A DNA stretch of 64,000 bases from Chrysomallon squamiferum (GCA_012295275.1 CM022679.1:4774001-4838000), one strand, 5' to 3'; positions 16,356 to 52,516 are shown, counted from the first letter of the stretch. Notes: generated by a model from the sequence alone, not told the origin. A program made the numbers and translations.

Positions 16356-16906
16356 TGCTACTGTGATATGAACCAAAGTGTTTTGTGACAGTTTGACATC
16401 TGTTGTTTTTGACAAGTCACAGTTCAAAAATATTTTTGATGAAGTTACTATACAAGTCTAGATCATATATTTAAGTATAAATCGTCCACTGAGGTTTGTG
16501 AAGGATGTCATTTCCTTTGTGTTGTATTATTTCTCACACAGAATATTATGTCTTACATTTGTTAAATAATGTTATTTGATACATGTTTCTATTTATTGTT
16601 AGACATAATCCATGTTGATAAATTAATAGTGAAGAAAACAATAAATGGAAAGTGTGTGTTTTGTAGGTATGTGTTTATGAGTGTATGTGTGGGTGTATGG
16701 GTGAGTGTTTTTATGTTTGTTAATATTTTCTATATTTTACATTATTTTGTGTGCAATAGTATTTAAGAATTTAACAGAGGTGTAAAATATTTTATCTCTT
16801 TATTATTACTTTATTCACAAATTTTCTGTTTAATATAAAAATAATTATTCTATTTTTCAACTGACATCTTGAACAAATTGTTTCATAGCAAATAAAATTG
16901 CAGTGA

Positions 16907-23940: not shown

Positions 23941-24904
23941 TCATCTATTCTGAAATATGAAATAATTAGAAATAAAATTAATTTTGGTTCTTAATAATAG
24001 TCATTGCATTACACTTGAAATTAAAATATTAAGTGAAACACTGTTCAAATAAATTTCTTAAAAGCAGTTTTTATAAAAAAAGTGAATAATAATAATTACA
24101 ACAGAAATAACTGATAATAACATGATTTAAAAAAAAAGAGTAACAATAATGATAACAAAAATAATATATGATCATACACATACATAAACTCACATAAACA
24201 CAAAACAAATGCACCCACATACATAAAAAAACCAAATGCATACACGCTTTGACACATTCATGTACTTATGTGCATGTATAAATATATACGTAGACACATA
24301 GAAACAGACACACACACACACACACACACATTCTCTTGGATGGTGCAATATAGCTGCTACTAAATATTCCACATAAAGATAAGACTTACCAGTCTCCATG
24401 TGATGACTTCAATCCATTCCTTCATATCCTGTTCTGAAGATGCATACATGTAAAATGTCCTCCAGTCAAACACCAGCCTAACACAAACAGAAACAACAAT
24501 AACACACAGGTCCATGTATTCACATAAAATAAACAGTAACACACAGGTCCATGTATTCACATAAAATAAACAACAGTAACACACAGGTCCATGTATTCAC
24601 ATAAAATAAACAGTAACACACAGGTCCATGTATTCACATAAAACAAACAGTAACACACAGGTTCATGTATTCACATAAAATAAACAGTATGACACAGGTC
24701 CATGTATTCACATAAAACAAACAGTAACACACAGGTCCATGTATTCACATAAAATAAACAAATAGTAATACACAGGTCCATGTATTCACATAAAATAAAC
24801 AACAGTAACTCACAGGTCCATGTATTCACATAAAATAAACAACAGTAACTCACAGGTCCATGTATTCACATAAAATAAACAACACTAACACACAGGTCCA
24901 TGTA

Positions 24905-24940
<36 letters not shown>

Positions 24941-25488
24941 AATAAAAAAAAAATAAAATAAAATAAAATAAAATAAAATAAAATAAAATAAAATAAAATA
25001 AAATAAATATATAAATGAAAAAATAACTAATAATAAAAAATAAATGTATAAACAAATAAGTAAAGAAATAAAGAAAGAATGAAAGAAAGAAAAATGAAGG
25101 AGAACAAGAAAAAAGAAAAGGATAATTGTCAGAGTTACCCCTTCATAAAATGAGAATCGATGTTTGTTAATATAACAATGAAAACGACATTGAGAGGAAA
25201 ACAAAAGATACTAATACGACACACAGTTGTGTGGTGCTCACCTGAACAGATATGGTTTGTCTTTCTTTGAGAAATCTTGAGAACACTCCCTGCAGTCGTT
25301 CAGGTTCAAAACCCGCACTGGAGACTTGTCCGTTTTTTCTTTGAAGTACTTCAGTTCGTTTTTTTGTAGAACGAACCATCGTGTTTTCCAGTTCTGAAAC
25401 AACAGCAGCTAAACTTTCAGTGAAGAAGAAAGATGAAAGAATTTATATTTTTAAACAAAATGTTTTATAAAATTTGTAAGTTTAAAAA

Positions 25489-25541
<53 letters not shown>

Positions 25542-25610
25542 CTAAAGATTTCAGAATGAAGAAGAAAGAAAATAATTTCTGTCCATCTCATCTCACAGGT
25601 TTTTTTTCTT

Positions 25611-25659
<49 letters not shown>

Positions 25660-28600
25660 ATATACTTTTTTCTCTCTCTCTTTTTCTTCTCTTTTTGTAA
25701 CACTGTAGTTCAGGTAAAATACTGAAAGAAAAATGTCATGATCTGGTCTGTCCAGGACACAATAACCAGAATGACTGAAGCAGCTATTTATTTCTAATCC
25801 CACAGAGTAAAACATGCTTTTAACACAACAAACACATTAAATTAAAATCTTAATTAAAAATACTCACTGGTCTGTATTCTGATAATTTTTGTTTGTAACT
25901 TTATGTTTACAGATATATACAAACATATACATACATAGACAAAATATTATTTCCATTTTCTATTACATAAATAATAATCATAAAATCTGATGTATAATGA
26001 AAGAAATTAAAATATACAGCAACTCTTTGTTACTTATAATTATCTACAATGTATCTTAAATGATTTAATCTGAATGTCACTCTTACACATGCAAGTGAAA
26101 TTCAATAAATACAGTTACAGTTAAGCAATGTTATAAGGTATGAAATATTAAGGAATATTAAACAGTCACATATGTAGCACTGCATGCAAAATCAATGGGC
26201 AAGCAAGATCTGGATGCACTAGTATGAAATAGTATGGAGGAATATGTACATCTGTGTGTGGTATGTTATGTATGTATGTATGTGTATATGTTCATATGTG
26301 TATTGTATGTATATGTGTCTGTTCACATCTGTGTGTGTATTTATGTCTGTGTGTCTGTATGTCATGTACTTAACTGAGTTGTTAGCATATGTATGCTATA
26401 TTGAGGATATTATTCTCTTAATTGTTAATATTACATATGTATATCAACCATACAATAACAACACAATATATCTAATTTAACAATTCTTTTAGGTGTCAGG
26501 AATTTCAGTTGAAATGATTTAAATACATTTTATATATATATATATATATATATACTGTACACCAAGAATCACCAAAAAACTTTAAAAAAATTAATAGGTT
26601 TAAAAAGACTTGTTATCAGCATTGGTTTGTTAAGTTTTAAATTTCAGACAAAAACAGTAAAGTGAAAATAAAACAAAATTATTATTAAATAGAAAATAAA
26701 ACATAAAAATATTATTTTTAACCTTAAGATTTAAAAAAAAAAATTATATATAAATAATTATCTATTCACAAATATACTTGTATCCAATATACCATCAGAC
26801 TTATCAACAAGGCAATTAGAAAAATTATTTTCTAGGAATTTTAAAATGAAAAGGATGGTTGAAACATGCATAAAAATGAAATTATATGTTTACTGCATAC
26901 CAAATCCAGCTATTAAAAAAAAAAAAAAAAAAAAAATAGTTGTTGAAGGGAGCAGAATAAAATAATAAATATACTTCATGCAAGATATTATTGAATGCAT
27001 GCTGGAATAAAATTTTAAAAAAAGGAAATAAAATAATGCATATACAAAAGACAGCAGAAGAAAATATTGTATGTTATAATGACAAAAGTAGTCACCACAT
27101 CTAGCCGCACAAACTGTTTAAATTATTATTATTTTTCTTAGAACCGCACGCAATAAGGGATGTTTCTGGAGATTTTCAGTGTCAGTTACCTTAATAAAAC
27201 GACCCTCTTTGGTCAAAAAACCTTCTTTAGAATTTATCTGAAAGGAAAATAACAGGTATAATATTAATCAGTTATTAGACAGATGTCATACCTTGCACCT
27301 ATCTCCCAGTTTTGTCAAAAAGCCTTCCTTTGAATTGATCTGCAAATAAAAACAAATTCCAAAATTCCTTTTGGAACACAACAGTAATATAAATTACACA
27401 ATATGAATACAGCCTTTTTTAGGACATTCATTTTTTAAATATATTAATTTTAAAACATTTATTTTTTTTAAATAATTTAGAATTTGTTGATTTTTACAAT
27501 ACGAAAATTAAAAGATATATAAATATTATAATTATACCATATAATATCAATGGAATTTTACTTTCTGCAAAATAAAATCTATGTATAAATATGAAACTGT
27601 ACATTAAATGTATTCCAGTTAGTGTTTATCAAGGAAAAAAAACCAGAGAGAGCCACAATAATTTTGTCATGGTACTGGCACAAAGGCAAATGTAGAATAT
27701 CTATAAACACAAGCATATAAAAAGTATATATGCTTAGTATTAACATACTTTGCTTATAATAAAGAATAAGAATAATGAAGCAAGCTGACATCAATTCCTG
27801 GACAACAATAACAACTAAAATGTCAGCCTGAACGGTAAGAATTAAATGCTACTACAGCTTCAATTGTTACTGCTACAACAACATGGCAACAGATGCAGGT
27901 GATACTGTAAGGACCACTATTTTACCACTGGAAGTCAGATTGCTGTCATTTCTGAAGCATCTACTAGCAAACTACTGTTACCATGGTTACTGGTGCTGCT
28001 ATTACTGCAACTATTATTATTACTCCAATTCTACTAGTATTACATTACTGCTTCTACCATTACCACTTCTTCAGTTACATAAAATATTACTATTCCTACC
28101 ACTTTAACTGCTACAACTGCTGTAACCTTAACTGTTGCTTTAAACTGTTACTTACCACTGCTACTACTATCTCACTTCTATAATTATTACTACTAATGCC
28201 ACCACTACCTAACAACTTCTGATAATATTATTATTACTTTTACTACTGTTACTGTTATTGCGGCCGCTACTTTTAACATTACCATTATTCCTACCATCAT
28301 CATTACTACCACTACTACTACTTCTATTACTACAGCTTCTACTGTAATCTTCCTTCTCTTCCTTCTGCTACTACTACTACTACTACTACAACTATTATGA
28401 CTTCTACTACTTGTTTACTATCATTCTCAATCTAGAACTGACAAAGACAAAAGAGTTATCTTACAGAAAAGTCTGAGGTAATGTGACCAACTTCAGCTGT
28501 GCTAAGTTCCGCATGTATTGTGACATCTTCATACAAATCTGGTTCAGCAATGTCTCTCGGATATGGTCGACAGAGCAGAACAAGTTGTCCTGATTGTTAA

Positions 28601-30885
28601 AACAATAGAAAAAAATTAAAAAATTTAAATAAATAAAAGAGATTAAAAGGAAAACTAAAGAAATAAAATTTGTATCAAATAAATAAATAAAAGAGATTAA
28701 AAGAAAAACTAAATAAATAAATTTGTATCAAATAAATAAATAAATAAATAAATGAGAATAAAAGAAATAATATTTAAACAAATGAATTTGTATTAAATAA
28801 AGAAATAAAGAAAGAGATTAAAAGATAAGATATATTTAAACAAAGATATTTTTAGCAAATAAATAAATAAAATAACACATTAAAAGATCAAATAAAATAA
28901 AATAAAATATCTATCAATCCAAACACAAAATCTACAAAGTTTTTTCTTTCTATATTTATAAACCTATTTTGAATATTTCACAACACCAGATCAAACATGG
29001 CAACTTTGTATATTAATTTAAGTGTTACAATACTAGAATAAAAACTTATAAAAGTTTACAAAAAAAAAAAAAAAAATAAAATAAAATAAAATAAAAAAAA
29101 AAAGTAAAAAAAAGGGTAAAGCAATTAATAAAATAAAACAAACATGACTTTATTTTTACAATGCCTCTGATAATTCCTGATTTCCTGGAAACAGTGAGCT
29201 CACCTGACTCTCCTCCTATGAGAGGTTTGTTACTGAAGTGGGTAAGCAGGTCTTGCAGAGTTTTGAAACTTCCGTGACCAAACTGAAAATCGCTTCCTGT
29301 CCACCGGACGTTGAAATGTTTAACTGACTTGTCACATCTGTAAGTAAATAGTTCAACATTGAACTCTGACTGTACTTGGATTACTATACATCACAAAACA
29401 CAACATACATACATACACACTTGCTTACACAAACACACACTCACACACAGAAATATTTACATACTTGCCCACCTCTAACGTTAAAGGACTAGAATTTAAT
29501 TTGTCTGTCCTCTAACAAGAACTATATTCATTGCCTTACTGTAACATTTAAATTATTTCAATTATCTGCCCTCTGATAATTCTCTAACAAGAACTATATT
29601 CACTGCTTATACCATAACATTTAAATAATTTAATTCATCTGCCTGACGAGAACTGTATTCACTGCCTATACTGTAATATTTTAAATCATTTAACTTACAT
29701 GCCCTCTAAAAAAAAAACTGAACTCAATGCTTATACTGCAGTATTTAAATAATTTAACTAGTATACTGTCTTTCAAGAACTAAATTCATTGCCTAACTGT
29801 CGTATGCAAGACACTTCCAATTCCAAAATGAATTAAAAACATACCATAGATATGTTGATTAACAATAATAATATCAAAACCGTGATTTTAATCAATATAT
29901 TTTACATTTTAGCATCATGATGTTTAGCCTCAATCAGGTTTTATTTTGTTGAAATTTTCTAATTTAAAACAAGAAGACTCACTTGACAGACAAGGCATAC
30001 TCCGACTGTTCTCCTGATTTTGAACTTGGTCGCAGTAAGTAAGTACCGTCTGTACCGTTCTGCAGCAGCATGCTCTCTGCAGTGTGCCGGTTCAGGTTTG
30101 GGTGAAAAAAACTGAAAATTAAATTTGTTAAAATATGAAATTTTTTTAAACATTAAAACATGTTGATGCTGTATGAAATATTTCTATGGTATTATCAATT
30201 CAGTTGTTATAGCTTAGATATGGATAATTAAATTTCTGGTTTTTCAAATGATTGTGAAGAAGGATTAAGTAAACCGTTATAAAAAAAAAAATTAAAAATT
30301 CGGGTACGATTAGGTTTAAGATAAAGAAGGTTAAGTAAAATAAAAAATAATTATTAAATAAAGAAATTAAAAAATACAGATTTATTTTCAAAATTAAAAT
30401 CAACTGATATAAACATAATACAGGTATGAAAATTTCATTAAAGTTAACATTTTAAATACCTTTTTATTTATATCCAAAAATCTTGAATAATAATCTGCAT
30501 GGTATCTATGTAAAATGTGTTTTGGATGTTTGTAGCATATGAGTACATGTATATTAAAAATGAATACTTATGTGGGCATATGTAATGTATTTATATGGTA
30601 TGTCTGTCTAGTATGTGCAAGTGGTATGTGTGAAATTTGGTATAATATGTGGGGTTTCACATGCATTCATGCACCAAAAGGCTCACCGATACCTGTTTTT
30701 CCTCTGGGACTACTAATCTTCACTGAAACGTTACTTACAAACATTGTCTATCAACATAAAAAAAAAAATGTAAAAATATTTTTGGTTGATTTTTATTGGT
30801 GTTGTTCAAAGATTTACTTTCAATGGTAACTGCAATCTGATACTTACAAAAGATTTTCAATATCTTCAAGGCAAGGTCCCACCAT
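23941..30885 (-). CDS. DAPP1: DAPP1/Bam32-like dual adaptor for phosphotyrosine and 3-phosphoinositides (SH2 + PH)
   Basis: Minus-strand exons 30885-30848 (MVGPCLEDIENL), 30111-29983 (FFHPNLNRHTAESMLLQNGTDGTYLLRPS), 29337-29204 (SVKHFNV...HFSNKPLIGGES), 28589-28465 (PYPRDIAEPDLYEDV), 27339-27292 or 27237-27190 (INSKEGFLTK..), ~25393-25243 (NWKTRWFVLQKNELKYF), ~24477-24390 (FDWRTFYMYASSEQDMKEWI), 23949-23941 (NR*). Colinear with DAPP1 as recalled (WYHGNLTRHAAE, PYPRKVEEPSIYESV, KEGYLTKQGGLVKTWKTRWF). Confidence 0.9.
24497..24905. repeat. ~36-39 bp minisatellite (aacacacaggtccatgtattcacataaaataaacagt), about 11 copies, intronic in DAPP1-like gene
   Basis: Direct reading of tandem units. Confidence 0.95.
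27190..27237 (-). CDS. DAPP1: DAPP1-like PH beta1/loop exon variant B (INSKEGFLTKEGRFIK)
   Basis: 48 nt, phase 0/0, acceptor ttttcctttcag, donor gtaact. Confidence 0.85.
27292..27339 (-). CDS. DAPP1: DAPP1-like PH beta1/loop exon variant A (INSKEGFLTKLGDRCK)
   Basis: 48 nt, phase 0/0, acceptor tttttatttgcag, donor gtatga. Confidence 0.85.
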
Positions 30886-32498
30886 TCTTTTCCATTTCTA
30901 GATCACTAATACAGGTATCTTTTCTCCTACACAAGAAATATATAAAAACATACATACATACATACATATACACACACACATATATATATTATATATATAT
31001 ATGGATGGATGGATGGATATATATATGTATGATGTATGGATAGTTGGATGGATGGATGGATGGATGGATGGATGGATGTATAATTATAATGTTGATATTG
31101 GTGATGATGATAATTATGGTTATTATTACTCGTGGTGGTGGTATTATTATCGTGATGTCTCTTTACAATTCAAATTTATAAACATATTTTTTTCTTATAT
31201 ATTACACACAGAAATGCTAACATATGAATACATATGATATGCTCAAAAGAATTTAATGCAAATATACCAATACACATCCATACACAAAATTTAATTTATG
31301 AATTGGGACAGCTTCATGGTTATTTGTATTGATGCAAATGAGTGAATAGTTAAATTTTATAATTCATGAAATTAAACATAACATTTAATATTTATAATCA
31401 TGTAATATTTGCTTTTATTAAGATGAATGAGTATGTGTAGGCTTCATTTCAAGTATTCACAAACAAACATATACACACCCACATATGCAGAAAGAAATGT
31501 GCGCACAGACCACACACACAAGCAATATACATTAAACATACAATTATATCAAAATAACCAATATCTAAAGTAATCAATACACATAATAAACTGTAACTTT
31601 TACTCACATTTATTCAATATTTACTTGATATATCCATGAACAAACATATTTTCATAAAGAATACATATTTTGTACATGAATGCACTCAAGTTTCAAGGAA
31701 GTCATTTTAAAAGGATTAAGAAAAATAATTTGATCTATATGTATTTAGTAAGTGATGTTGAATACCAAACAACCTGGAACTGATAGAAATGGGAAATCTG
31801 GCTTTGAAGTGATTGATCAATATATAATTTGACAGCACCTCAAGCAATCAATCCTTATAACATGTATCACTGATACTTCAGTTAAGAAGCAGGATCATTA
31901 ATTATAAAGCATTTATAGAAATTTTCATCAGTAAAAGATTATACTTGTTAATTACATTATTAATAAATTAATTTATTATCATAAAATTTATCTGATTATT
32001 TATTATCATTATAATTATTATTATTTTCTATTATCAGTATTATTACCTTCATTAATACATTAAAAAACTTAGGTTAAAAAACATTTAATAATTTGATACC
32101 AGGTTTAATAAGATTGTTTTATAAATGCATACTATACTGTTAAATACTCAGATCATTTTGTTCAAAACAGCAATAATTTGTTTAATTATATATATATATA
32201 TATATATAGTACAAGTGTTTTCTGTTTTTTTTAAAACTTCTCTATGTTCTTTCTAATTAGTTTTTGATGACACAACTAGAATGAAGTAATAATCTGAATA
32301 TAACACCTATTTACTTATTTACCTTTAGGCTAATCATCAGTCTAGTACAAACTAATTACTTGTTTGTATGACAAATGGCAACTTCAAATACAATGAGTCT
32401 TCAACAAACAGCCTAAAACCTATTTTTATACTTTTTACAAACAATTATCTTATAAATATTCAGGTATCAAGGTGTTTTTTTTATGTTATTCTTGTGAA

Positions 32499-32529
<31 letters not shown>

Positions 32530-33061
32530 TTTAATTACTAATAATGAAACTTTGAAAGTATGAATTTGGAAAACGTACACACATAGCACATTATCTTACA
32601 AAGTGAATAATGTGAATCACTTAAAATTTTGAACCTATCATATAATGATGACTAATCAGGTTTTTTGATAAAAATAGAGTTAATTATTTAAGTAACAAAC
32701 ACTGAGACACTGACATACATATGATATATATTTTAAAATAAGATTTTTTAATTATTTCTCAATACATTTTTTTTTTTTTTTTTTTTTTAATAATAATTTC
32801 AAAAGCAACAAAAATGTATAGACGTGTGCGTCAACAGGCGATTATTTATGAAATAACTGTAATAACAGTGAAGTAAAATCCGTAAGTGAAGAATGTAGCC
32901 TGGTTCAAGTGCTTCGAGTCTTTTCAGTTTTATTACCAATGTCGAAATTCAGTTGATTAGTTTTATAAGAAGATACTCAAACGTATCCAGTTTCCTATGT
33001 TCAGATATAAAACTTTCGTCAATTTCAAAAAGATGTAACGTTTAATGATTGACATACTTAC

Positions 33062-33155
33062 GTCTGCTTAATTTTCTTTTAACATGATCTCACTTCTTTT
33101 CTTGTTTGTATTTTCCGCAACGAACGATAACTCATTATTTCATTTTCCGGAACAT
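33062..33155 (-). other. Probable non-coding first exon / promoter of the DAPP1-like gene
   Basis: Strong minus-strand donor (gac|gtaagtatg at 33061), local CpG enrichment, ETS-like ttccggaa near 33145; would splice to the acceptor at 30926. Confidence 0.5.
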
Positions 33156-33376: not shown

Positions 33377-34206
33377 TTTTTTTTTTCTAAATTAAACCCA
33401 CACCTTTCGTCTTACGGCATGGGTTTTAGGGGCAATCGGAAAGTTTAGAAAATGTATTTCATATTCATTAACGTTTTTCTTTAAAAAAATATATTACTGG
33501 AGACCTCATTGTACATGTAACAACCCATGTGCTTATACAATTTTCATCTACGTTTATGGGAATGCGCTTTTACCTGTAGTATTATTATGTCCATTATTTT
33601 TTTTTTACCTATATAATTAAACCGATTCTATTTATATACATGTAGGACATCTTTTTTTCCCATTATAAAGTTATGAATATTCATTTTATCGACAAAATTA
33701 ATTGTCATGCATAATTAGTAGGCCTGTAAGGAACATTTGTACATACATGTATATTGTTAAGCTGTCTATATAATTTTATAATCCGTTTAAAGATTAAGTG
33801 ATAAAACAAATCATCTAAATATGTTCTGTAGTCTCTCTTTCTCTCTCTTATACGTTTCAGTTCCCGTATAAATGCCATGTTACTTGATTTTTGATGTGAA
33901 TTTTTGTTGGTTTGGCAAAAACGCCGTTACCTTACGATGTGTGTTTATGTGTGTGTGTGTGTGTGTGTGTGCGCGCGCACAGTATCTTAATATCGTGCTT
34001 TTTAATAATTATTTGGATACTATTATTATTATTATTATTATTATTAATTTCCCCAAATATTTAACTTTTAAGCTTGAACACCGCCCCTTTAGAGTGCTAA
34101 TTTAATGTATTTTATACAAAAGTTTTGTCATGTTTATTATGTCGATTTTAATCATTTTGTGGGCAGCTGGAATGAAACCAGAAACACTCATTCTTAAGGT
34201 TTAGGT

Positions 34207-34222
34207 GGCCCTTAAAAGGGCC
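34207..34222 (-). terminator. Histone 3'-UTR stem-loop (GGCCCT-TTTA-AGGGCC) of the protamine-like gene
   Basis: Minus strand reads aagaaac GGCCCTTTTAAGGGCC accta, 43 nt after the stop codon; matches the metazoan SLBP-binding hairpin; purine-rich AAGAATGAG downstream. Confidence 0.9.
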
Positions 34223-34265
34223 GTTTCTTGACATAATATTTCTGAACATTTTACTCTAGTAATGT

Positions 34266-34577
34266 TCATCTTCTAACACCCTTTCTTCTTCCCTTTCGAA
34301 TTCTCCTATGTGACCTTCCTCTCCTACGTTTCTTCCGACTCCTTGATCGGGTTTTTCGCCTTTTTCTTGATCTAGATTTTGATCTGTGTCTAGATTTAGA
34401 CCTTTTACGTTTTTTTCCATGATGTCTTTTGTGTCGTTTGGCCTCTTCTATGACCACGGATGGCGATACGGATCGAGAGTGGTTTCCGGTGTTGGGTTCG
34501 GAATCTGATTTACTTCCGGATACAGATGGACTCTCAGATACCGGTGAAGCAGATCTGGAACTTCTAGCACTCTGCAT
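34266..34577 (-). CDS. Intronless protamine-like sperm nuclear basic protein (Ser/acidic N-terminal half, Arg/Lys/Ser-rich C-terminal half; PL-III/pre-protamine-like)
   Basis: 103-aa ORF with good start context (caaaATG), C-terminal KRKRSKSRHRSKSRSRKRRKTRSRSRKKRRRGRSHRR, non-microsatellite codon usage, histone stem-loop downstream, TATA upstream. Confidence 0.8.
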   Translation of the reverse strand: MQSARSSRSASPVSESPSVSGSKSDSEPNTGNHSRSVSPSVVIEEAKRHKRHHGKKRKRSKSRHRSKSRSRKRRKTRSRSRKKRRRGRSHRRIRKGRRKGVRR

Positions 34578-34748
34578 TTTGAATATTTCTTTATTTCTTT
34601 ATTTCTTTATTTCTTTATTATTATTGTTTATTTTTTTTTATTATTATTATTATTATGTTTATTTATTATTATTTTTTTTTATATAATAGCGTTTAGTGTA
34701 CGTACGTATTATGTATTTTAAAAAATAAAAATAAAAAAAATAAAGAAA

Positions 34749-34800
34749 TGACGTCACAAAAACCGCGGACTTTTTATAACCACCGCAGAACGGACGTCAC
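34749..34800 (-). promoter_or_regulatory. Core promoter of protamine-like gene: TATAAAAA (34771-34778) + CRE TGACGTCA (34749-34756) + second CRE-like site (~34792-34799)
   Basis: Motifs read directly; same arrangement as in the partner gene. Confidence 0.6.
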
Positions 34801-35859
34801 TGGAGTACTTAACGACACTTACTTATTGAATCTGTACATAACTGTGTTTCTTTTTCTTCTTAAATTACAAGTTGTGAAGCAAATATAATATTCATCACAC
34901 TTTGAAGTAATTAAATTAATTCCTAAAAGAAGCACTCTTACATTATCTTTTAAAATCGAGATTTTTCGTTTTACTGGGAAAAAAGTTAATTCTTAAAACT
35001 TAACAGAAATCACGCGAATTAAAAATAAATGAATTTTTGCAATGAATATATTCAAATTCTAAGACGTAGTAATTACATTGTGTTTATAATCGCAACATTA
35101 TATATAATAAAAATTGAAATGAAAAACAAATACAGTTGAAAGTTAATAAATAAATACTTCGCGATATAAAAAAATCAAATAAAAAGCTACACCTTTTTAC
35201 TACTATTATTAGAGGAATTATTACTATTATTTTGATTGGACAGGCAAATAAAACTACCTTCCTCTCATTCAAAACATTCTTTAACCCCCCCAAAATAGAC
35301 ATCCCGCCATAGAGAGACTGGTATACGTCACCAAATTAAACATGCCTTTGATCTTTATCAAGTAAACTAAGTCATAAACATGACTTAATATATATATAAA
35401 ACAACAATAACAACAACAACAACACTAAAATAAAAACAAGAAACAACAACAACAAAAGAACACACAAATAAATAAGGAAACAAATCAAGTTTCTAAACAA
35501 ATCCGATATGTATAGGAAAGTGATAATTACTTTTATAAAAAATTACGTTCTTTTGAAATATTAGAAGATATTTCTTAAGCGTTAACTCATATGTAAGTAT
35601 TATCTGGTGAGTTTAATCTTCTAAAGAAAATTAATTTAACACAACACGAGTTATAACAAACGCATTCCAGTGATGGTGTATAATTCATATGCGGCTGATT
35701 CTGCAAGTGTTATCAGTTTAAGGAAATATATTTTCCAGGTCTTTATTTTACGTCTAGCTAACTGTTTTAAAGAATTACAAATAAGTCATATAACTAAAAC
35801 GATATTCATATTTATTAACAATTAGGCAACGTTTTTTTCTAACGTTTTCAATGCCGTGT

Positions 35860-35914
35860 TTCCGTTTGCGTCCGCCACATATCTATAAATAGTGCCAACA
35901 AAGATGTGACGTCA
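35860..35914 (+). promoter_or_regulatory. Core promoter of H1-like gene: TATAAATA (35884-35891) + CRE TGACGTCA (35907-35914)
   Basis: Motifs read directly, 37-67 nt upstream of the ATG. Confidence 0.7.
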
Positions 35915-35950
35915 ACGTGTCATAGTGTCGAATGAAAAAAAGCGTTTTCT

Positions 35951-36523
35951 ATGATGCCGGGTTCTAAGGCATCTAGATCCCGGTCGGGCACTAGATCTAA
36001 ATCTAGATCTAGATCAAGGTCCCGATCCCAGTCGAAATCTGGGTCTTTAACACCCTCTGATCAAGAAGCGAGTAGCGAGGGCCAGGACATAAAGTTGAGA
36101 CCTAGTGGTGTGCCCAGCAAAACATCGTCAATGGTGATGAAGGTTGTAGATGCAATTAATAACATCCGTGACGAACAGGGAACATCCGCGCAGGCCATCC
36201 GCAAATACATCGCATCGACGACACCAATTCCTGCTTCCCAGTTGAAAATTCAGATCAGGAAAGCTTTGGCTGAAGGCGTTGAAGAAGGTGTACTTGTCAG
36301 ACCTAAAGGATCAAAGGCCACAGGTAGCAACGGACGATTTAGGGTAAACAATAACAAGGCTTGCCGGAAAGCCTGCATACCACGATGTCAACCAAAACCA
36401 AAAACATGTCGTCGCAGAAAGCCTAAATGCAAGAAGAAGAAGAAGAGGCGTTGCAGGAAAAAGCGAAAGAATAGATGCAAGAAGAAAAAACGACGATGTA
36501 GGAAGAAGAAAAAACGATGCTAA
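35951..36523 (+). CDS. Intronless histone H1-related protamine-like protein (PL-I type): SR-rich N-tail, H1/H5 winged-helix domain, Cys/Arg/Lys-rich C-tail
   Basis: 190 aa; globular motif VVDAINNIRDEQGTSAQAIRKYI...IRKALAEGVEEGVLVRPKGSKATGSNGRFRV matches the linker-histone fold; (SR)n N-terminus; histone stem-loop downstream. Confidence 0.92.
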   Translation: MMPGSKASRSRSGTRSKSRSRSRSRSQSKSGSLTPSDQEASSEGQDIKLRPSGVPSKTSSMVMKVVDAINNIRDEQGTSAQAIRKYIASTTPIPASQLKIQIRKALAEGVEEGVLVRPKGSKATGSNGRFRVNNNKACRKACIPRCQPKPKTCRRRKPKCKKKKKRRCRKKRKNRCKKKKRRCRKKKKRC

Positions 36524-36552
36524 ACAAGCACGTCCATCCATATGATAAAAAA

Positions 36553-36568
36553 GGCCCTTTTTAGGGCC
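36553..36568 (+). terminator. Histone 3'-UTR stem-loop (GGCCCT-TTTT-AGGGCC)
   Basis: aaaaaa GGCCCTTTTTAGGGCC acaaa, 29 nt after the stop codon. Confidence 0.92.
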
Positions 36569-36671
36569 ACAAAACACACACGAATGTTGTGGTTCTTTCA
36601 GTTAACATCCAAATTGCTGCCTAGAAAAAAATAAATATAATAATAATAATAAAAAATAATAATAATAATGC

Positions 36672-37037: not shown

Positions 37038-38315
37038 GAAGAAGAAGAAGAAGAAGAAGAAGAAGAAGAAGAAAGAAATGAAAAACATAATACATTAGTA
37101 TTTAAGGAAAATATATTAATAAAAAATATTTAAAAAACAAAAATAATAATGTTTAATAAAATTTAATAAAACATTGTGGAAAGAGGGAGATAACTCTATT
37201 TTATTTATAAATAAGTCATTTATTAAAGAAGATAATAATACTCACTATCCCTTGCCTGTGAAAATAAATGTTATCAATAGTCTTTGTTTATTTTTGGTAG
37301 TAGTAATATTATTGTTATTAAATAAGTGTTTAAGAGAACTACAAATAAAATTAAATCGATGATTTGTGTAAACTGTTTTGTAATAAATATGAATGTTCTT
37401 GCTCGTTACATTTGTCAATAATAAGTATTAATTCAGCTTGTCATTTTATTGTCATACGCAGGCTAGAGTTGAGTTTTTAGGAGGCTTACTGCCGATAACG
37501 AAAAAACAACATTTGATATACCAAAAATTATTATATACAATTTTTAATGAAAGTGCTTGGATTAAACACTAAATGTATACCCGTGCACACACACACATAC
37601 ATACATCTAGTTATATTTATACCGTTGCTTGTGAGCATATATACAAATCGTATATATTTAGCACTAATTACACAAATATTTAATGAACAGTTTGAAATGC
37701 GGCCTAATTCAGGATCCGTACTGTTATAAGGCATAACTGGTCATGAAACACGAACAAATTAATCGCTTGTAAGTTTGCAATATTTATTCAAACAACATAA
37801 TGCAATGCAAAATAAATTAAATAAAAGGTGAAGGTGTCAATTTCTTTTTTTCTTCTTCTTCTTATTATTAGCAATGTATATTCATATTTTCTTATTGTTC
37901 TGAAAACAGAATAAAGAAAATAAATAAATAAATGAATAATACGATGAAGTAGCTGTGTCATATTTTTAAATGAACTGCTAGTATATTTTTAAGTTAAACT
38001 ATTAAGGATAATTCAAAATTGGAATGCCATTTATGCATTTATTTATTTTTTAAGTACAAAATACAATGTTTATATATGTTTTGTTGCATAAATATCTATA
38101 GATCTACAAACTTATAATGGCATAAATGTGGAGACAAGATGATAGATTAGTAGATGCCTCTCTAACAAAATCGAGAAACACCTACGTAAAACAGCTGAGA
38201 TAAATGCATTACAAACGGATAGAATGTTAGTAATATGTATTTTAAAGTAGAATAAATTGCAGGAAATGCTGACTATCTGTGTGTCAGAGTTTAAAAATAG
38301 CGCCTATTTGATACA

Positions 38316-38352
38316 TGCGCATGCGCGAATAATGTAAACACCAATATGGCTG
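38316..38352 (+). promoter_or_regulatory. NRF1-type motif TGCGCATGCGC (38316-38326) and YY1-like AATATGGC over the start codon
   Basis: Consensus matches immediately upstream of the BTB gene ATG (housekeeping-type promoter). Confidence 0.55.
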
Positions 38353-41300
38353 CTGCCGAAGAAAGTTCCTACTATGGAACCTGGAGAGTAAGTTATTTTT
38401 CATTTGTACTTACTGTGTCTCCTTATTGTTACTTATTTATAATGCAGCTGCAGCTGAATTATACATGTCCTTTACATTTCTTTTAGATTGTTGAATGTGT
38501 GTCATTAGCAGGAACCGTAGAAACAACAGGAATTGAAGGGTAAGTCATGGTCGAAGGACTGTTTCATTTTGTTATAATGTTATTATTGTCAAGTTAGCAT
38601 TGAACTAAGCAACGTAATTCATTATTAGAAAGAGAATATTAACCAAAATACTTCTTTTTGTATTGATCCTGAATACAACAGTCTTTTAATGATAACAGTG
38701 GTCACTGTGACTGTCCAATATTAAGCCGAAAATATTTTTTAATAAGTTAATAATTATTTATCTGTCTATAATTAAAAATAAATATAGAAAGAAATAAAGA
38801 AATAAAGAAGAAAAAATTATGCCTTTATACTTAAACATCCGTTGCACTGTTAAACTGGCTTAATTATTTGTAAACAAGTTTTTGTTGATTTGGTTTTTCA
38901 ACTTTTTGGGATGTTAAAATACGATGCACGCATACTTTCATATAACAGTACATCAGTTAAATGTATAGGATAATACAAAACATCTTTTCACTGTAGTCCA
39001 ATTTTTTAAAATAAATGAATAAAAATTATTATATTTATTAAAAAAATATAATAATAAAAAAATTAAAAAAACAAACAACCCAAAAACAAACAAAAAACAA
39101 AACATATATATATATATATCTCAGTAGTATAATAGACTTTGTAAACTAAATATCAATAATATATATAGAGTATGAATGGGAATAACTATAACTGATAACT
39201 AATGACTAGATATAATACTCGTCTATATGCATATAAATAAGCAAGAGAAATATCTGTTAATTAGTTTATCATTTCATCAAATAATTAGTATTAGGTGCAT
39301 AACCCCCACAAAAAACCCATGACAAATTCCCCCCCAAACAACAACAAGACGAGAAAAACACAACCCCCCCCATCAACACAGGTGGACATTAGGTTAATGA
39401 TTAAATGGTGAATTTTCATCAGAAATAATCCAATAATATTTTTTTTCATATTCAAAGCCATTATTAAAATCTGATATTATTGTCCTTTGACTTTGGAACA
39501 TGCACAGAAAGATATTATTAATTTTAAAGCAGGCATACAACAGTAATTACCAGTGTTTTTCCCCTTTTTTTAAAATTATTATCTTCATTATTTTCTAAAA
39601 GCTGCATTTACATAATCATAGGAAAACTGGTATTGTAAATTTTTGTTCTAATTACCAAAAAACTGACTGATTTAATTTATTGTTTGCTCTGTGTTTATAA
39701 TCAGAACTGAATTTCATCTTGATGAAAATGGCGATGTTTCCTGGAAGATTTCTGAAGACGCTGAGCCGATGCCGTTTTTCAACTGTGAAACATACGAGGT
39801 ATGAAAAAATGCTGTGCATTGTGCAGCTGAAACAGTTTTTTGTTTATTTACTGGGAAAAAAAAAGTATTTATTTTTAGTTGAAAAAACAAAACAAAACTA
39901 CTATCCCAACCTGTTTCAGAAAATTTTAATGTGTATGTAATAAATATATTTGTGTGTAACCGTATATTAATGTACATGTATGTGTGTATGATATGTAACA
40001 TACATGTATACATACAAGATGATAACACACACACACACACACATTATTTTTGCTGTAGTTGTATATTTAAAGCACTAGACATATCTGTTAATTTATGCTC
40101 ACTTACAGCATTTTATTAAATATTTTATTACACCAATGTTTGTGTTTAAAATACTGTTACTCACTACTACTCACTGGTTTGTTTTTTATTCTTCAAATAA
40201 TAAATATTAATTTTTCTCCCCCCAGGTTACACCTCGTGCCGGTACATCTCCAGCTGTTTTGAAGTTTATCTGGACGTACGAAGGGCACGTCATAGAGTTC
40301 AGAGTAAGTCACTCATAACTGTTTTATTTGTTATTTATTCAAGCAGACTGTGTAGTCATTTCACATGTTAAAAGAAAAGATTCTGCTTTCTGATCTTATT
40401 TAATGGCTCAGGGTGTGGGTGTGGGTGTGGGTGTGGGTATGGGTATGGGTCGGTGCGTGTGTGGGTGGGTGCATGTATGTGTGTGTGTGTTAATAAAGAT
40501 TCAGTTAATCTATATTTTAAGATGACAGGAGTAAGTAACTCAGATTACATGTAATATACTTCCTTGAAATTATTATTATTATTGATTTTTTTAAATATTT
40601 TGTTTCTTCTAGTAGTACAAATGAAAAGTTTCCAAAATAATGTTTTATTTATGTTTCTGTTTTTTTAGTCATGATACTGATTGCATTCTTTCTCCGTTCA
40701 AGTATTTGTTTTACTTTGATATAGACATCAGCCTTTGCTAACAATAAAGTATGACTGGTGATGTTTTCAGTCATTACACATTACATATAAATTTTCAGGT
40801 AGAAGTTGCAGATGACCTCATGTTGCTAACATATGAAAGGTGTTGTATGTTGCAGTGTCAGAAGGTAAGATTCATTTAAAAAATCATTGTGTGGCTATGA
40901 TTTGTTTGTCATTAAGTGCAGAATGTAGCACCTTTTTTGTAAGTGCTGTTGTGAAAGTAATCAGTGTCCTGAACATGGTTAATAAAATCCTAGTCTTTTT
41001 ACAAATAGTTTTTTTGTGATTAATTTTCTTTCCCCCTTTTTAAAAAGGCTATAAACCCAGATTAAATCTTGAAAAATCACCATGGGAATAAAATGTTTAT
41101 TTTCTGAAATACATCTGTTACAGCTTCCAATTATAATTAAATGATAAGCTTGAGCACATAATGTTTTCTTTGATTCTAACTTGAACTTTCATGTCAGATA
41201 ATTTTCAAAGTAAAGGAGTTCTCTTCTCACTGACTTGATCACTAATAAGTCAATCTCTGAACTGTCTTAACATAATATTGTTAATGTCAACAGATGAATA

Positions 41301-44187
41301 TCTATATCTATAGCTACATGTATCGCTCTATCTGTCTATCTATTTATATATATATGTGTGTGTGTGTGTGTGTATATATGTTATTACATTAATTAATTTC
41401 AGGTATCGTCAAATGGTCCAAAAGATGAGGTTCCATTTTCATTTCTTGGGGCTCTTGAAGAAGGGTACTTTTCAGATCTTGTAGTGAAAGCAGATTCTGG
41501 TAGAGAGGTAAAATTTTAATAATTATCTAACTTGAACTCGTTTTTTTTCCAAATGTGATAAGACCAGAGTATTTCTTGGCCATTAATACTAATGTTATGA
41601 ATGCACTGAGAAAATGTGAGAAAGGGTAGAATTTTAAATATAATTTCTGAGCTGGACTGTCGTCATATTCTTTTATTACCATGTTGAATGTCATCCAGTG
41701 TTGTGGGACATTTTAAGAAATATTTTGGTTTGACAGCTCAGATTTGCAATACCAAACTTATTTGGCCAGAGTTTGTCTTTTACCTGTTGGAAAAAGATTT
41801 TAAAATATTTGTTTCTGTTTTTTTCTTTATTTCTTCAAATGTTTCTAGAGAAGCCTGGCTAGTAGTGCCCCATTGTGAAAATAGAGAAAGGAATGTAAAA
41901 CCAAACTCATTATTTATAAATTTTTATAATTTCACTATATGATTCGTTGTACTTTTATGACCAGGGTAAAATCTAAGCCTGGGGTGTCAGCCTTCAATAA
42001 TATTGAAAAAAGGGCACTGAAAAGAAATACAAAAATAAAACAGGCTTAGAATATCATGTTTCAGAGAATTAAAAACCTTTGCACTAATCTGTCATCATCG
42101 TCATTCAGCTGAATTATGTTATGAGATGTTATTCTGTGTGAATTCATTATGATTCTTGGAGTTGAAACACTTTTTACACCTTAATCTTAAAGAGACTTTA
42201 TCACTGAAAGACAAGAAAATTGTATATTAGAATCACTTAAATACTCTCACAAAAGGAATCATTCATTTCACAAACCAGTCTTGAGATATCGCTTAATGAA
42301 ACCTCCTCCGATTTATTCTTACACACCAGCCCATTCCTGACATTCTTTGATTTTTTTTAAAAATTCAAAAATCTTTTTTTTTTTTTAATAAGTTCTAAGA
42401 TCATTTTTTTTTTTAATAATAACTTCAAAGATCTTTTTTATTTTAAAATTCAAAAATCTTTATTCTATTTTTTTTGTTTTTTTTTAAATTTTAAATTTTC
42501 AGTTTAAAGTACACTCAGTGATACTGCAGCTGAGTTGTGCTGAGATGGACTGGACTTCGAGCCCTCCCCCGCTGTCTGGACTGAAAGCAGACGTCCTGGA
42601 GGCGACGCTGCACTACCTGTACGCAGAGTGTCTGCCCCGGGGGATGTCGGAGGACACGGCCAGGGCGTGTATCAAGTCTGTGGGGAAGCTGCCGGGATTC
42701 GCCCGATTCTCCCAACTCTGTGATACGTTTCTGAAAAACGCTGCACTGAAACAACGTAAGTGAAAAACAGTCTGGGATATGTGAGTTAGTGATTGAAAAA
42801 CAGTCTGGGATTTGTGAATTAGTGATTGAAGAACAATCTGCAGGCTCACAGATTTGTGAATTACTGATAGAAGAACAATCTGCTGGCTTGCGGATTTTTG
42901 GAAATTAGTGATAAAACACAATTTAAATAATAATATAATGTTGTGACGTTGGCTCGAAAATTTTATATAACGATAAAATCTTGTGACTAGAATCGTATCG
43001 TGATAATTTTAGATGATAGTAAAATACTGTGACACTGGCAACGGTTTGAAAAGTATTCATAATCACACAATGGTGTGACCATTTTTTGTCTTGAAAATTG
43101 TCTGTAATAATAAAATGTTTTGACCACCGTGTTGAAATGTTTAGAATGAATAATAATTACATGTCATTTTGTTAATTAAAATTAAGAAAATTTAAAAAAG
43201 AAATGTATAAACTGTAATAATAATATTTAAGAATCATCAAACTATTTTGAAGTTTTTCATTTTTTTTTAAAAGGTTAGAAAGAAAAAAAAAATTCCAGAA
43301 AATGAAAAGCTGTTATCCATGAAAAAAAAAAAAAAAAAGTACCTAATAAGAACAAAATCAATTTAAAAAAGTCAAATTATTCAAAAACCAAGCATTTAAC
43401 TATTAAAAGCTTATAACAATAACAACAACAACAAGAAGAAAAAATAAAATGGTAAAATAATTCTGTAAAAGAAAAGAAAAAATAATCAAATATGTAAAAT
43501 AAGCAAACTTTTCCTTCGTCAGTCAGTGTGATCTTGATTTTGTTAGTGCACATTTTTAATACAAATTAACCTTGATAATTAAATGTAACAGTTACATTCT
43601 AACAAACTGTTTTTTTTTTCCTCAAAAACTTTTTGTTAATAACATTTTCTTTATTCCTACTGCAGAAATAATTAACTTAATAACTGACATGCATGGCTGT
43701 GCAGACAGAATTATTGAACTCTTTACTGTGAAGGGAGCTAACTCTGTCGACGGTCATTTTGCTGTTGACTGCAGTTTGGTTTCGAACCCAGCAAAACTGT
43801 GTTACGTGGTGAGACAGGCTCTGAGGGAAGCAGCTGTAGGTAGGTCATTAATAATTAATTTATGTTAATATTCTACTCTGATTGCTTAACTGATTTGTAA
43901 CAAAGACTGTAATAGGGTACAAATTTATGCATTAACTCTTCTGCTCTTTTAACTCGATAATGTTAATAGTTTGGTAATGTTAATAACTTTTTAATTTTGT
44001 ATTTCAGTGTTGATAATTAATTAAATATTATCCATATTGCTCATTAGTAATAAAATGATTTCAAACAGTAAATATTTTATGTTCCTGTTTTTATTATTAT
44101 TATTATTATTATTAATGTTGTTACTACCATTAATACTTGTATTATTATTATTATTATTATTAATGTTTTTATTACCATTAATGTTTA

Positions 44188-44259
<72 letters not shown>

Positions 44260-44294
44260 TGTTATTACCATTAATATTTGTATTATTATTGTTA

Positions 44295-44330
<36 letters not shown>

Positions 44331-47300
44331 TTTATTTCTCACAGCCTGTGCTAAGCTGTTAATTTTGTGTGACTTGTTTTCTAAGAGGAAGGGAGAATTG
44401 TCAAGAGAAGAGAGACATGAAATCATGAAATACGCCAAATCAAGGTTTGCTAAAAAAAAATAAAAACACATTAAAAAAAACCCCCAAAACACCTATTTAT
44501 GTTGATTTGGGTAACAGAAGACTATAAAAACTAAGAAATATGCCAAATCAATTTTTACTAAAATAATGCCATTTTTGTTATTAACAAAAGAGTTAAAATG
44601 AAAAGATCATAAAAAAAAATTACTTAAATGTACTTAATATATTTTACTAATCAAACTGTTGGAAAAGAATCAGATAAACCAAAAACAAGAACTTCGAGCA
44701 GTGAAGAAGAAGTGTGAATGAAAAATAGTTTTATTATTTTCAATTACTGAAGGTCAGATCTAGGCAAGACTGGAGTAATTTTCAGTTTTTGGTTACTACT
44801 TTTGTTTTCATTTAACCAATGCAATAGATTTTAGTTAATGGTTCACTTTCAGCTTTTATAACATACCAATGTGTGTATGTATGTTTTGTGTTAATATATA
44901 TGTATATTTATATATACACGTGTGTGTATACACAATTTTTGTTTTTGCTTCAGACTGCCAATCTTCATGAACCAGCTACACAGGTTTCTAGAAGTGTGTA
45001 AGGAACATGCTGACCAGCTGAGTGTGGCACAAAGAGAGGAGATAGCCAACTACCTAGTACCTGAGGTAAATTATGTACCTGCATGACAGGTAGAAATACA
45101 GGTGCGGGTCTGTTACAGGTTTTGAAATCAGTTGTGTGCTGAAGAAATCTAAGAGAATGTTGTGATTTCATGTTCTGCTAGATGTTGTAAAAGAATAAAA
45201 AAATAAAATTAAAAAGATGTTTAAAAATAGTCTTTATTCATTGACAGTCATATTAGAAAGGTATCAGAACTGGTTGTGAATATAGAAAAGAAAAGTGAAC
45301 TGATGTGTTCAGATGGGTTCAGTGAGTTTGTTTTGACAGAGAAGTGGAGTGAATTGTCTTCATTCTGTTTTAAACAAAAAAACCACTGACCTGTTTGTAT
45401 TTGTTAAACTCAGACTGGTAACTGTCTTCATATTGTTTATATTTAGTAACAATTTTTCTTTTGTTAAATGTTTCGTTTTGCCATTCTCTGTTGCAGCTTG
45501 TTGTTACACTGGAGATGATGTCTAAGTTTGCACAGGAGACGAAGGCAGCGTTGGAGCAGATTATTGCTGCCAGCAACGCTGCAGAGAAGTCAGAACGTGG
45601 AGACAAACACAAGAAAAGTCACATGGGCGATGTCCTCGGAAAGGCTCTGAAAAATGTAATCTTATTTTTTTTTGTATTATTATATTTTTTTTTAGATATG
45701 ATGGTTCATATTTAATAAAAAAAAATTAAAAAAAGCTTATTTTTACAACAAAAAAAAAAAAAAATCATCTTCAGAAGTTGCATTTTTTAATTTTACTTAT
45801 TTTTTAATTTAAAAGTTTATAAACATGTTTATAAATATTTAATATATTATTCGGTCTTATTACAAATCAATTGCATAAAGATTACATTTTTTTTTTAATA
45901 TATATATATATTAAAATTTATTCATAAAGTTGCTTAAAATGACTGAGTAATTACAAAATTTGGAAAACTTAATTGTATTCATGCACATTTCATTCAGGTT
46001 TTGTCAGTTAAAACATTCCTTTGTATTGAAGTTTCTTGTTAGAAAATAATCATATGTTTTTTAGTTTTTTTGGTATTTCATGAATAAGGATTCCATTCAA
46101 TTTTTAATAACATTAAAAAAAAAAAAATTTAAATGCTGATTTGTTTTTCAGTTTAAATTTCACCAAGATGCTGAATATAATGCCTTGCTTTCAGTTATTT
46201 AATACTTAAATCTGTGAAGTTACTGAAGAAAAATTATTTGTATTTCATAAAGGCGCTGCACATCAAAGAGTTGAAAAAACTCAAAAGTTTTCATGAGAGG
46301 ACAACGACAAGCTTCATGCATTTAATGCAGAAAAAGTAAGACTTGCAGTTTTATTTAGAATTATTTAAGTTTTCAGTTTTTAGGTACTAGAACATTATCT
46401 CAGTTAAAAAACTGAGTTAGTAGTTTTACATCTTTTTCGTGTTTTATGAATTTTACTGTTTTGTTAAAATGGTATTTTCTGAGTGTTGGAATTTTAGGAA
46501 TATGGTATTTTCTGAGTTTTGCTATTTTAGTTTACAATTTTAGCAAGTGTTAACATTTCCATCCAAACTCTTACAAATGTATGAAAAAACATTCTCATAT
46601 ATATATATATCTCAGGCATACCAATTACACACCTATCTCAATTAAGAATATAATCTGTGTACATTAAACACACAATTTTATATATATGTGTGTGTGTAGA
46701 GTTTAACAGTGGATATCTTTTCCACAGAGATCATTTTTGTATGATGTCACAAAGGGAAAAGGTTCGAGCCACATCTAAAAACCTAGAACAGTTAGCTGAC
46801 GAGGTAACCATTTAAAATCAGTTTTATTTTATATTTTGTATTAGTTTTTTTTTAGGATTATCTGTGTAATGAGGATGTTGTGTTAGTGAGTGTGCTTGTT
46901 TGTAATGTGCTGTGTTTCAGGATAAATCCTGCTGTAGGTTTTTCAAATTATTTTCATCTCTTGCCTATGTCAAATGATTAGTGTGTGTGTGTGTGTGTGT
47001 GTGTTTAAATGTATATATCACACCATTGTAATTTATCTATCTGCCTGCCTGTCTCTGTCTTACTGTCTGTCTATACAGGTATATATATATATATATATAC
47101 AAAGATAGACTGTTAGAGAGATAGATATAGATAGAATATATTTGTGTGACATATACATTTATATAGACTAGGAGAAAAGCATACAAACGGTTATTGCTTC
47201 TAATAAATAATTTTTGCAAACATATGAGTAAAACTTTGTCAATGCTCATCTGAAATGTCTGAACCAAATATTTATACCAAGACAGAAAAAGATATCATTT

Positions 47301-49144
47301 TTATTTTTTTTATAATTTTATTTTTTGTTTTTGCTGTTGGTAAGGTAAGTATAATGTTTATTTTGGCTAAAAGGAGAGAGTTTTATTTTCTTAGTCAAAA
47401 ATCTTCTGGGCTTTTTCTGTTTGAATATTTTCTGTTGATAATGTAAGTATAATGTTTATTTTGACTAAAAGGAGAGTTTTTATCCTGTGATAAATTGTTT
47501 AATTTTTTAAATGTTTTTGCTATTGGTAAGATAAGTATGTTTATTTTGGCTAAAAGGAGAGAGTTTTTTTTTAATTTCTGTTAAAATTGTTTGTCTTCAG
47601 GTTCCTCATTTTCTCACGAGGCTGAAGGAACTGATGTCAGCTCTTGACGAGAAGGTGACATGGAGAGAATGGAAATATCTCTTTAAACTCGGCACTTCCA
47701 AAGTTGTAAGTCATTTTGTACAGTTTACTGACAACAGAGGATTCAGATCTTAACGAAATGAATCACGGAATAATAGTTAGCTAGCAGTTGCAGGTCACGT
47801 ATCAATGTACTGCCATCTTATAAAATCCATGTCAAGGTCAAACAGTATTTCTCTTTAAAAAAAAACATTTTTTTTTTTTACTTTTTGATTTAACTGTATA
47901 AATTATAAAGTTACATCTTATTAAAATGCAAAATGACACAAAAAATAGGGAAAATAGGGAGAAAAAAGGGAAAAGTGTTTGTAAATTTACTTTAATTAAT
48001 AAACATCATTAATTGTATTACTATTCATCTGGACTGATTTATTTGGTAAGTGTAAGGAGAGGGAGACATTACAAAAGCTAAATTCCATGAATATAAGAGG
48101 AATATTGACAGGTATGAGAATGAGAATATATTCATAATTATTTTAAATTCTGGACAGAAAGGGAAAAAACAAGCTGAAATACATTTTACATAGTTTTAAA
48201 TTAGTATTTGATTTGTGTATTGTGGTGTCCAGTGTTTGCTAAACATATTTTACATACATTTAAATTTAGTATTTGATTTGTTTGTGGTGTCCAGTATTTG
48301 CTAAACGACTGTTTGTTTGTGTCAGGCGTGGGGTTTAGGCAAAGTGCTGGCTAACAAGTCGACAGTGCAGTCGCTGATTGACCAGGTGTGTGACATGGCA
48401 AACAGAGAACAGTTCACAATGTCGCTGGCCTCCCTTGGACTCGTCTCGAAAGAACCAAGTCAGGAGTCTCCAGCAAACTGCGCCAAGTCAATGTCACAGC
48501 CAGCTTCTACGAAATATGCACAGGTACAGAAAACTGTTCAATTTAAACATGCAAAGGGTTGTTTATATCCATCAGGATGTTCTCCATCTTCCAGGGTTTC
48601 ATCTGTTTGTGTGATCTCCCACATACTAGGGGTGGGTGTGTCTATCAGGGTGATTCTATCTGCTAGGGTGTGGTGGTCTGCAACTGCCAGGGCTTTTAAT
48701 ATCAAGGTCCAGGTTGTATATATTCCAGGGTGATCTCTCTTTACAAGGGGTATATCTATCAGTGTTCTTGATCTGGCAGTATGATCTGCATTTAACATGG
48801 GTACATCTACCAAGGTGGTCTCCATTTATTAGTTTGAGTCTGTTAGGATAATCTGTATCTACCAGGGGTTTGTCTTTTAGGGTAATTAAAAAATGACTGT
48901 ATAAAGGGTGACCCGGTGACTTCCAGCCACAAGAGAAATATCTGTCAGGATAAATCTCCATCTACCAGTGTCTCCTGTATCAGCTTCCTCTCAGACTTGA
49001 TAGTAAAAACTTTTAATATGTATGTTGTATCGTAATGTGAAAAACAATGTAACGTATGTATAGTTAATACAAAATGTTTATTTAGATGTTTATTTTTAGT
49101 TAACATCAAACACTATGTATGTGTAACTAATACATAATGGTTGT

Positions 49145-49187
<43 letters not shown>

Positions 49188-49314
49188 TTATAACATTTTA
49201 TGCATATTCTGATAGTATACAGAATATTTATTTATTTACTGTTAACATCACATGTTTAATAGTATACAGAAAAGTTATTTATTTATTTATTTATTTATTT
49301 ATATATTTTTATAT

Positions 49315-49361
<47 letters not shown>

Positions 49362-50943: not shown

Positions 50944-50992
<49 letters not shown>

Positions 50993-52413: not shown

Positions 52414-52459
<46 letters not shown>

Positions 52460-52482
52460 GTTATAATGGTAATAAAAACAAC

Positions 52483-52516
<34 letters not shown>

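Follow-up and report, generated by a model that had tools for sequence, protein, structure and literature searches.

Sea urchin sperm H1 and H2B and mammalian H1t are sperm-specific histones with stem-loops, and the squid protamine mRNA is reportedly polyadenylated, from a promoter said to contain CRE and TATA elements. In Hydractinia, the sperm-specific histones H2B.2-6 are encoded by intronless genes with a 3' stem-loop, which form a small germ-line cluster separate from the main histone array (PMC5011920). Histone mRNAs carry the hairpin 25-60 nt after the stop codon (10.64898/2026.10.14.759114). PL proteins have been described as kin of the replication-independent H5 (PMC13251019; PMC11607694), and removal of a leader is common among protamine precursors (PMC12216123). 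What is known of the passage from H1 to protamine comes mostly from the cleavage of PL precursors and from composition.

The gene pair reported here, designated A and B and located in a 64-kb window (the whole stretch of DNA that was analysed), resembles Hydractinia H2B.2-6 in its layout. However, the Hydractinia genes keep the histone fold, in a species without P or PL proteins (PMC5011920), whereas gene A has no such fold. Because hairpin-bearing sperm-specific histones have already been described, the hairpin on B is less surprising and represents a modest extension of these known cases. A search of the literature revealed no case of a histone hairpin on a fold-less protamine or PL gene, and PL 3' ends are not described in the available portions of PMC5550673, PMC13525598, PMC13113032 and PMC3256202; since the literature covered excludes the primary Mytilus PL and squid protamine gene papers, the novelty of A's histone ending is provisional. 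A stand-alone fold-less gene with a histone 3' element and the promoter core of a neighbouring PL-H1 would support the H1-to-protamine route at the level of genes, and gene A would be a natural substrate without a histone fold for SLBP/U7 processing, a pathway reported to act on histone mRNAs specifically.

The gene pair, its surroundings and its transcripts

Two divergent ORFs for basic proteins were found with start codons separated by 1373 nt, in agreement with the distance of about 1.4 kb given in a preliminary description of this DNA (Table 1). The pair is flanked by the SH2-PH gene and the BTB-like multi-exon gene, both of which have their 5' ends towards it. Searching the window by tblastn with H2A, H2B, H3 and H4 gave nothing, and an H1 query matched only B; the earlier statement that the window holds no core histone genes was thus upheld. 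A transposon origin of the cassette was also considered and was without support: the repeats listed around the pair include no terminal repeats beyond microsatellites, and tblastn of four hairpin-associated non-histone proteins against the window gave no match.

Table 1. Positions of features in the 64-kb window and, under labels beginning with L, of gathering-level hairpins in control loci
Feature	Position	Strand	Remarks
MFS transporter gene	12600-16400	plus	
SH2-PH gene	24300-33100	minus	name DAPP1 from the preliminary description
Candidate histone downstream element of A	34187-34195	minus	AAGAATGAG; 8/9 purines; begins +12 after stem
Histone-type stem-loop of A	34207-34222	minus	Rfam RF00032, 34.3 bits; 43 nt past stop; predicted mRNA end near 34202
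Gene A CDS	34266-34577	minus	ORF call and RNA contigs; 103 aa, 12.0 kDa; probable protamine/PL-III-type precursor
Promoter core of A	34749-34778	minus	TATA box at 34778; TGTGACGTCA at 34758-34749
Promoter core of B	35884-35914	plus	TATA box at 35884; TGTGACGTCA at 35905-35914; RNA contig starts 35928
Gene B CDS	35951-36523	plus	ORF, PF00538 and RNA contigs; 190 aa; PL-type H1 by sequence
Histone-type stem-loop of B	36553-36568	plus	Rfam 32.6 bits, E 1e-6; 29 nt past stop; predicted mRNA end near 36573
Weak candidate downstream element of B	36580-36589	plus	best 9-mer 6/9 purines
Multi-exon gene	38300-54000	plus	weak BTB match (E 0.0013); C-terminal UBA/HBS1_N-like matches
Control locus L065	1496-1541	plus	behind Harbinger-type DDE_Tnp_4 transposase ORF, apparently intron-bearing
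Control locus L033	132-177	minus	behind MADF ORF
Control locus L009	129-175	minus	behind MADF ORF
Control locus L069	141-186	minus	behind RING ORF
Control locus L059	90-135	minus	behind unknown 120-aa frame
Control locus L015	1443-1489	minus	PIF1 helicase ORF ends 8 nt upstream

Eleven sequencing runs were listed, nine of which contain part of the stretch; two of the runs, X7 and X8, from a single study, are on record as RNA. In both RNA runs, most of each coding region is covered by gap-free RNA contigs (34279-34582 and 34322-34582 for A; 35928-36375 and 35934-36505 for B). The intergenic bins (34670-35838) showed zero RNA contig cover in either RNA run, indicating that the RNA signal is not DNA carry-over. 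Both A and B are transcribed. The two genes had been called intronless; their ORFs are indeed uninterrupted, and the coverage shows an unspliced state for the coding regions only, the 5' UTR of A lying in a skipped repeat. Contig depths were 3274 and 6159 in X7 compared to 12 and 14 in X8, a contrast that fits tissue-restricted expression, with the limit that depth is a poor measure of expression and that both runs come from one study. The RNA contigs, which were filtered and likewise come from this one study, end about 65-80 nt before both predicted 3' ends, so that the hairpins and the downstream poly(A)-like sites are uncovered; these contig limits are given no weight in judging where the mRNAs end. 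Four coding differences were seen in the sequencing runs in A and B together, three of them synonymous and one Lys99Thr in A, and none breaks a frame. On the 5' side of A, RNA contigs were also observed to extend 46 and 112 nt past 34582 without alignment to the window.

Promoter cores and histone-type hairpins

The promoters of A and B are separate, about 1.1 kb apart. The element TGTGACGTCA is present in exactly two copies in the window, 20 and 21 nt past the TATAAA start before A and B, respectively. A local alignment of the promoters alone was modest (8 of 200 shuffles scored as high), and the weight of the shared core therefore lies in the position and uniqueness of TGTGACGTCA rather than in the alignment score. 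This shared TATA-plus-TGTGACGTCA core points to co-regulation or a common origin of A and B. We take TGTGACGTCA to be a CRE-type palindrome. Protamine promoters carry CRE elements, with which the palindrome of A and B, placed downstream of the TATA box and close to the predicted start site, may be compared. For A, a 5' UTR of about 170 nt is predicted (34583-34750); it consists mostly of A/T microsatellite and is long for a histone-type mRNA.

Both genes are followed by a perfect 16-nt hairpin with a 6-bp stem and a 4-nt loop, as had been described, at distances from the stop codon that lie within the 25-60 nt range of histone mRNAs (10.64898/2026.10.14.759114). When the window was scanned with Rfam Histone3 (gathering cut-off, 34 bits), the hairpin of A passed the cut-off as the sole gathering-level match in 64 kb, and that of B scored just below it. 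The strict hairpin motif is present in two copies in the window and in none of 100 order-2 Markov simulations, and the pair is well beyond chance. The hairpin of A is present in both the MFE and the centroid folds and is identical in the two DNA runs of the same organism that cover the site, one of which is possibly the source of the window. The flanking 3' UTRs of A and B have no similarity to each other (190 of 200 shuffles scored as high), and stems that are perfect despite such unrelated flanks suggest that selection acts on both hairpins. In the downstream elements, GAATG is common to A and B at +14 to +18; with eight purines per 9-mer in A and six in B, compared to 5-9 at 17 sites of histone-bearing loci, B is at the low end. 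One contig from a second organism, 190 nt long, agrees with the stem and candidate element of A (34188-34222) at 31 of 35 positions, giving weak support as it was chosen by match.

The preliminary description took the stem-loop pathway to be essentially restricted to histone mRNAs, a premise that was weakened by a control. A search of prokaryotic assemblies for the exact hairpin pattern yielded 72 loci, some of them apparently stray animal contigs; 52 were scanned with Rfam, the other 20 being further pieces of four histone-gene contigs. The scan gave gathering-level matches at 15 of the 52 loci and none at 37. Histone ORFs are upstream at six of the 15, non-histone ORFs 19-27 nt upstream at five, a PIF1 ORF at one, and no clear ORF at three. 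The five non-histone loci score 37.6-43.4 bits, and these five and the PIF1 locus, all apparent animal contigs in bacterial MAGs, carry purine-rich downstream elements. Judging from these sequences, the histone hairpin element is not confined to histone genes, which lowers the claim of uniqueness and provides a rival origin for the hairpin of A. The sequences also suggest that mobile elements may exploit histone 3'-end processing, possibly so as to be expressed in S phase. No report of histone hairpins behind such non-histone ORFs was found in the literature, including the available text of the Harbinger paper PMC9179366, and the hairpin pattern gave no match in viral contigs.

Coding products of A and B and their relatives

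Gene B was correctly described as encoding an H1 winged-helix protein: a Ser-Arg arm is followed by an H1 winged helix (about aa 59-135; PF00538, E 5.4e-17) and a 55-residue tail, which is 40% Lys and 25% Arg and contains all nine Cys of the protein and no Ser. The Ser-Arg arm, the LVRPKGS..G..GRF wing motif and the basic tail are common to B and the mollusc PL-I/PL-II* (PHI-2B) H1 proteins, whereas the Lys/Arg/Cys make-up of the tail, its Cys spacing of 4-8 residues and its lack of Ser differ from the PL-I/PL-II* (PHI-2B)/Gigantopelta family. The closest relatives of B are Gigantopelta aegis proteins, the best of which show 44-53% identity, and three Gigantopelta relatives have 6-12 Cys. This kinship points to a gastropod related to Gigantopelta as the source of the window. 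In an H1-domain tree of 46 rows and 78 columns (44 of 155 proteins, selected by us, with B and one H1 from control locus L029), B groups at 98/97 with six Gigantopelta proteins (five PHI-2B-like and one H1.4-like) and the long-branched P0030. The canonical H1 group, which contains one hairpin-bearing H1, is separate (99/97), and the wider link of B to Mytilus PL-II* is weak (88/54). With a PL-clade winged helix, a Ser-Arg arm and a basic tail, B is by its sequence a PL-type H1. PLs are tied to the replication-independent H5 (PMC13251019); B, by contrast, bears a replication-dependent-type 3' element.

B is likely to be a sperm protein. This role is graded likely rather than proven because protein B4 is the solved structure closest to B (E 2.3e-10) and because an oyster gene named PHI-2B is active in embryos and in primordial germ cells (PMC12551290), so that the PHI-2B label is insufficient to prove a sperm role.

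Two observations concern B and its relatives. The Cys residues of the tail (36356-36520) are set amid Lys/Arg runs, and the tail follows VNNNK. A cut close to NNN, as in Mytilus PL-II/PL-IV, would free a 55-residue Cys-rich protamine. At least seven diverged PHI-2B/H1-like proteins are present in Gigantopelta aegis (P0001, P0002, P0005, P0006, P0008, P0021 and P0102), several with Cys-rich tails, and to judge from these proteins the PL family is expanded in this snail lineage.

Gene A encodes a 46-aa Ser-rich leader of Ser/Pro/acidic character (net -1) and a C-terminal 57-aa basic domain (7.4 kDa, net +37) that is 65% Arg+Lys (Arg 42%, Lys 23%); the whole protein is 26% Arg, below typical protamines. 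The Pfam search gave no credible match, and the winged helix is absent from a single-sequence structure model (pTM 0.21), in line with the earlier view that A has no histone fold. No hydrophobic signal peptide is visible. No homologue was found among 161 near-length and 2197 longer candidates, an Atlas search gave no usable match, and neither the protein of A nor that of B was found in a 5.8-billion collection. Small, very basic, with Arg clusters and no folded domain, the product of A is of protamine/PL-III type in sequence. Leader and basic domain are arranged as in cleaved protamine precursors, which lose a less charged N-terminal part of the kind that A possesses (PMC12216123). Mytilus PL-III (phi 1) and the cleaved precursors of squid, Murex and Monodonta are, like A, of about 100 residues, basic and rich in Ser, Arg and Lys, and Mytilus PL-III is 11.3 kDa (PMC11607694) compared to 12.0 kDa for A, a likeness in size and composition.

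The pair had further been proposed as a snapshot of the H1-to-protamine transition. The sequence comparisons give this no support: neither at the protein nor at the DNA level does A significantly resemble B or any of 153 H1/PL proteins. Among these 154 proteins no alignment with A exceeded a z of about 3.5, composition aside, and H1 or PL homology was not detectable, in a test whose power is limited by low complexity. The best match of the leader, P0021, was top of the 154 at z 3.5 and is only suggestive. The heptapeptide RSKSRSR is present in A and B and in none of the 155 other proteins compared. Among 72, 21, 26 and 26 pattern matches, no orthologous DNA of PL relatives was confirmed.

Two more specific candidates were rejected. 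The derivation of A from Gigantopelta P0002 by removal of the winged helix, considered for the common KKRKRSKS, gave z 0.5 and is unsupported. The match between the coding DNA of A and B, over the shared RSKSRSR, looked significant against base shuffles, only 1 of 200 of which scored as high, but not against synonymous shuffles (75 of 1000; local codon shuffles, 21 of 1000).

Proposed mechanism and rival explanations

The explanation that we favour, and consider rather probable, is joint activation of the two genes in the male germ line, with SLBP/U7 cutting both mRNAs, B working as a linker histone of PL type whose tail can be cross-linked, and A being trimmed to a protamine. A and B would thus be gastropod sperm chromatin genes, likely co-regulated and switched on together. 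SLBP would bind their mRNAs and U7 would cut them some 5 nt past the stem, in place of polyadenylation, by the pathway described in 10.64898/2026.10.14.759114. B would be held on chromatin by its winged helix and Cys-rich basic tail, and cleavage may free the tail, with cross-linking also possible. The product of A would start out as a precursor; phosphorylation and trimming of its uncharged Ser/Pro leader would yield a protamine of some 57 residues. In the weakest step, A may descend from a duplicated B-like PL gene, with promoter and 3' signal retained and the winged helix lost. The compound claim that A is a true protamine precursor from such a PL-H1 duplicate, with a non-polyadenylated mRNA made via SLBP/U7, is tentative and in our view rather doubtful. 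Several points speak against the favoured explanation: the hairpin of B under the Rfam cut-off and its weak downstream element, the long 5' UTR of A, the Arg content of the whole A protein, the compositional nature of its likeness to H1/PL proteins, the expression of the oyster PHI-2B-named gene, and the failure to find orthologous DNA among the pattern matches. From the SNBP cassette with histone-type 3' processing that had been proposed, a transcribed pair of basic chromatin-type genes away from core histones remains, whose promoters share one design and whose histone-type 3' elements stand at the canonical distance; the sperm role is one that we infer.

Three rival explanations, compatible with one another and non-exclusive, were weighed. 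The hairpins may be inherited and the spermatid mRNAs mainly polyadenylated downstream, through dual or vestigial signals, which we consider unlikely. AATAAA lies 68 nt past the hairpin of A and 61 nt past that of B, but it occurs 370 times on the + strand of the window, so that copies near the hairpins carry little weight. Protamine expression is usually post-meiotic, which would favour polyadenylation, as would the weak downstream element of B. Some replication-dependent histone mRNAs are, moreover, polyadenylated in non-dividing tissues (PMC13525598). The perfect stems amid unrelated 3' UTRs, with the selection they suggest, argue for use of the hairpins. It is similarly improbable that A uses the histone ending as an independent basic protein not derived from H1, its hairpin having come from a mobile element or a short histone-gene copy. 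The lack of detectable H1/PL homology in A favours such an origin, and the full-score hairpins behind Harbinger transposase, two MADF, RING and unknown ORFs imply that the element can travel with non-histone genes. However, A and B have in common the promoter design, the GAATG position and RSKSRSR, the terminal repeats near the pair are only microsatellites, and the four such proteins compared with the window were unmatched.

That the pair has no sperm role is quite unlikely. B would then be an oocyte, embryo or germ-cell H1 of B4/H1oo type, and A another basic protein of dividing cells, for example a nucleolar or antimicrobial one. B4 as the nearest structure and the expression of the oyster PHI-2B-named gene (PMC12551290) are in its favour. 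Nevertheless, the Ser-Arg arm and Arg/Cys tail of B and the Arg clusters of A fit sperm proteins, B falls in the tree with PL-named proteins and apart from B4-like rows (weakly, at 88/54), and A shows no hydrophobic signal peptide.

The favoured explanation raises the question of whether a hairpin-ended mRNA is kept and translated past S phase or is made earlier. If both the descent of A and its SLBP/U7 processing were true, histone hairpins would tag and date H1-derived protamines that are missed by similarity searches, and scans of mollusc genomes for orphan histone hairpins should reveal protamine genes absent from annotation.

In the control hairpin search, animal histone clusters were also observed filed within bacterial assemblies, as host contamination (L006-L008, L020-L025, L029-L031, L039-L047, L050 and L062).
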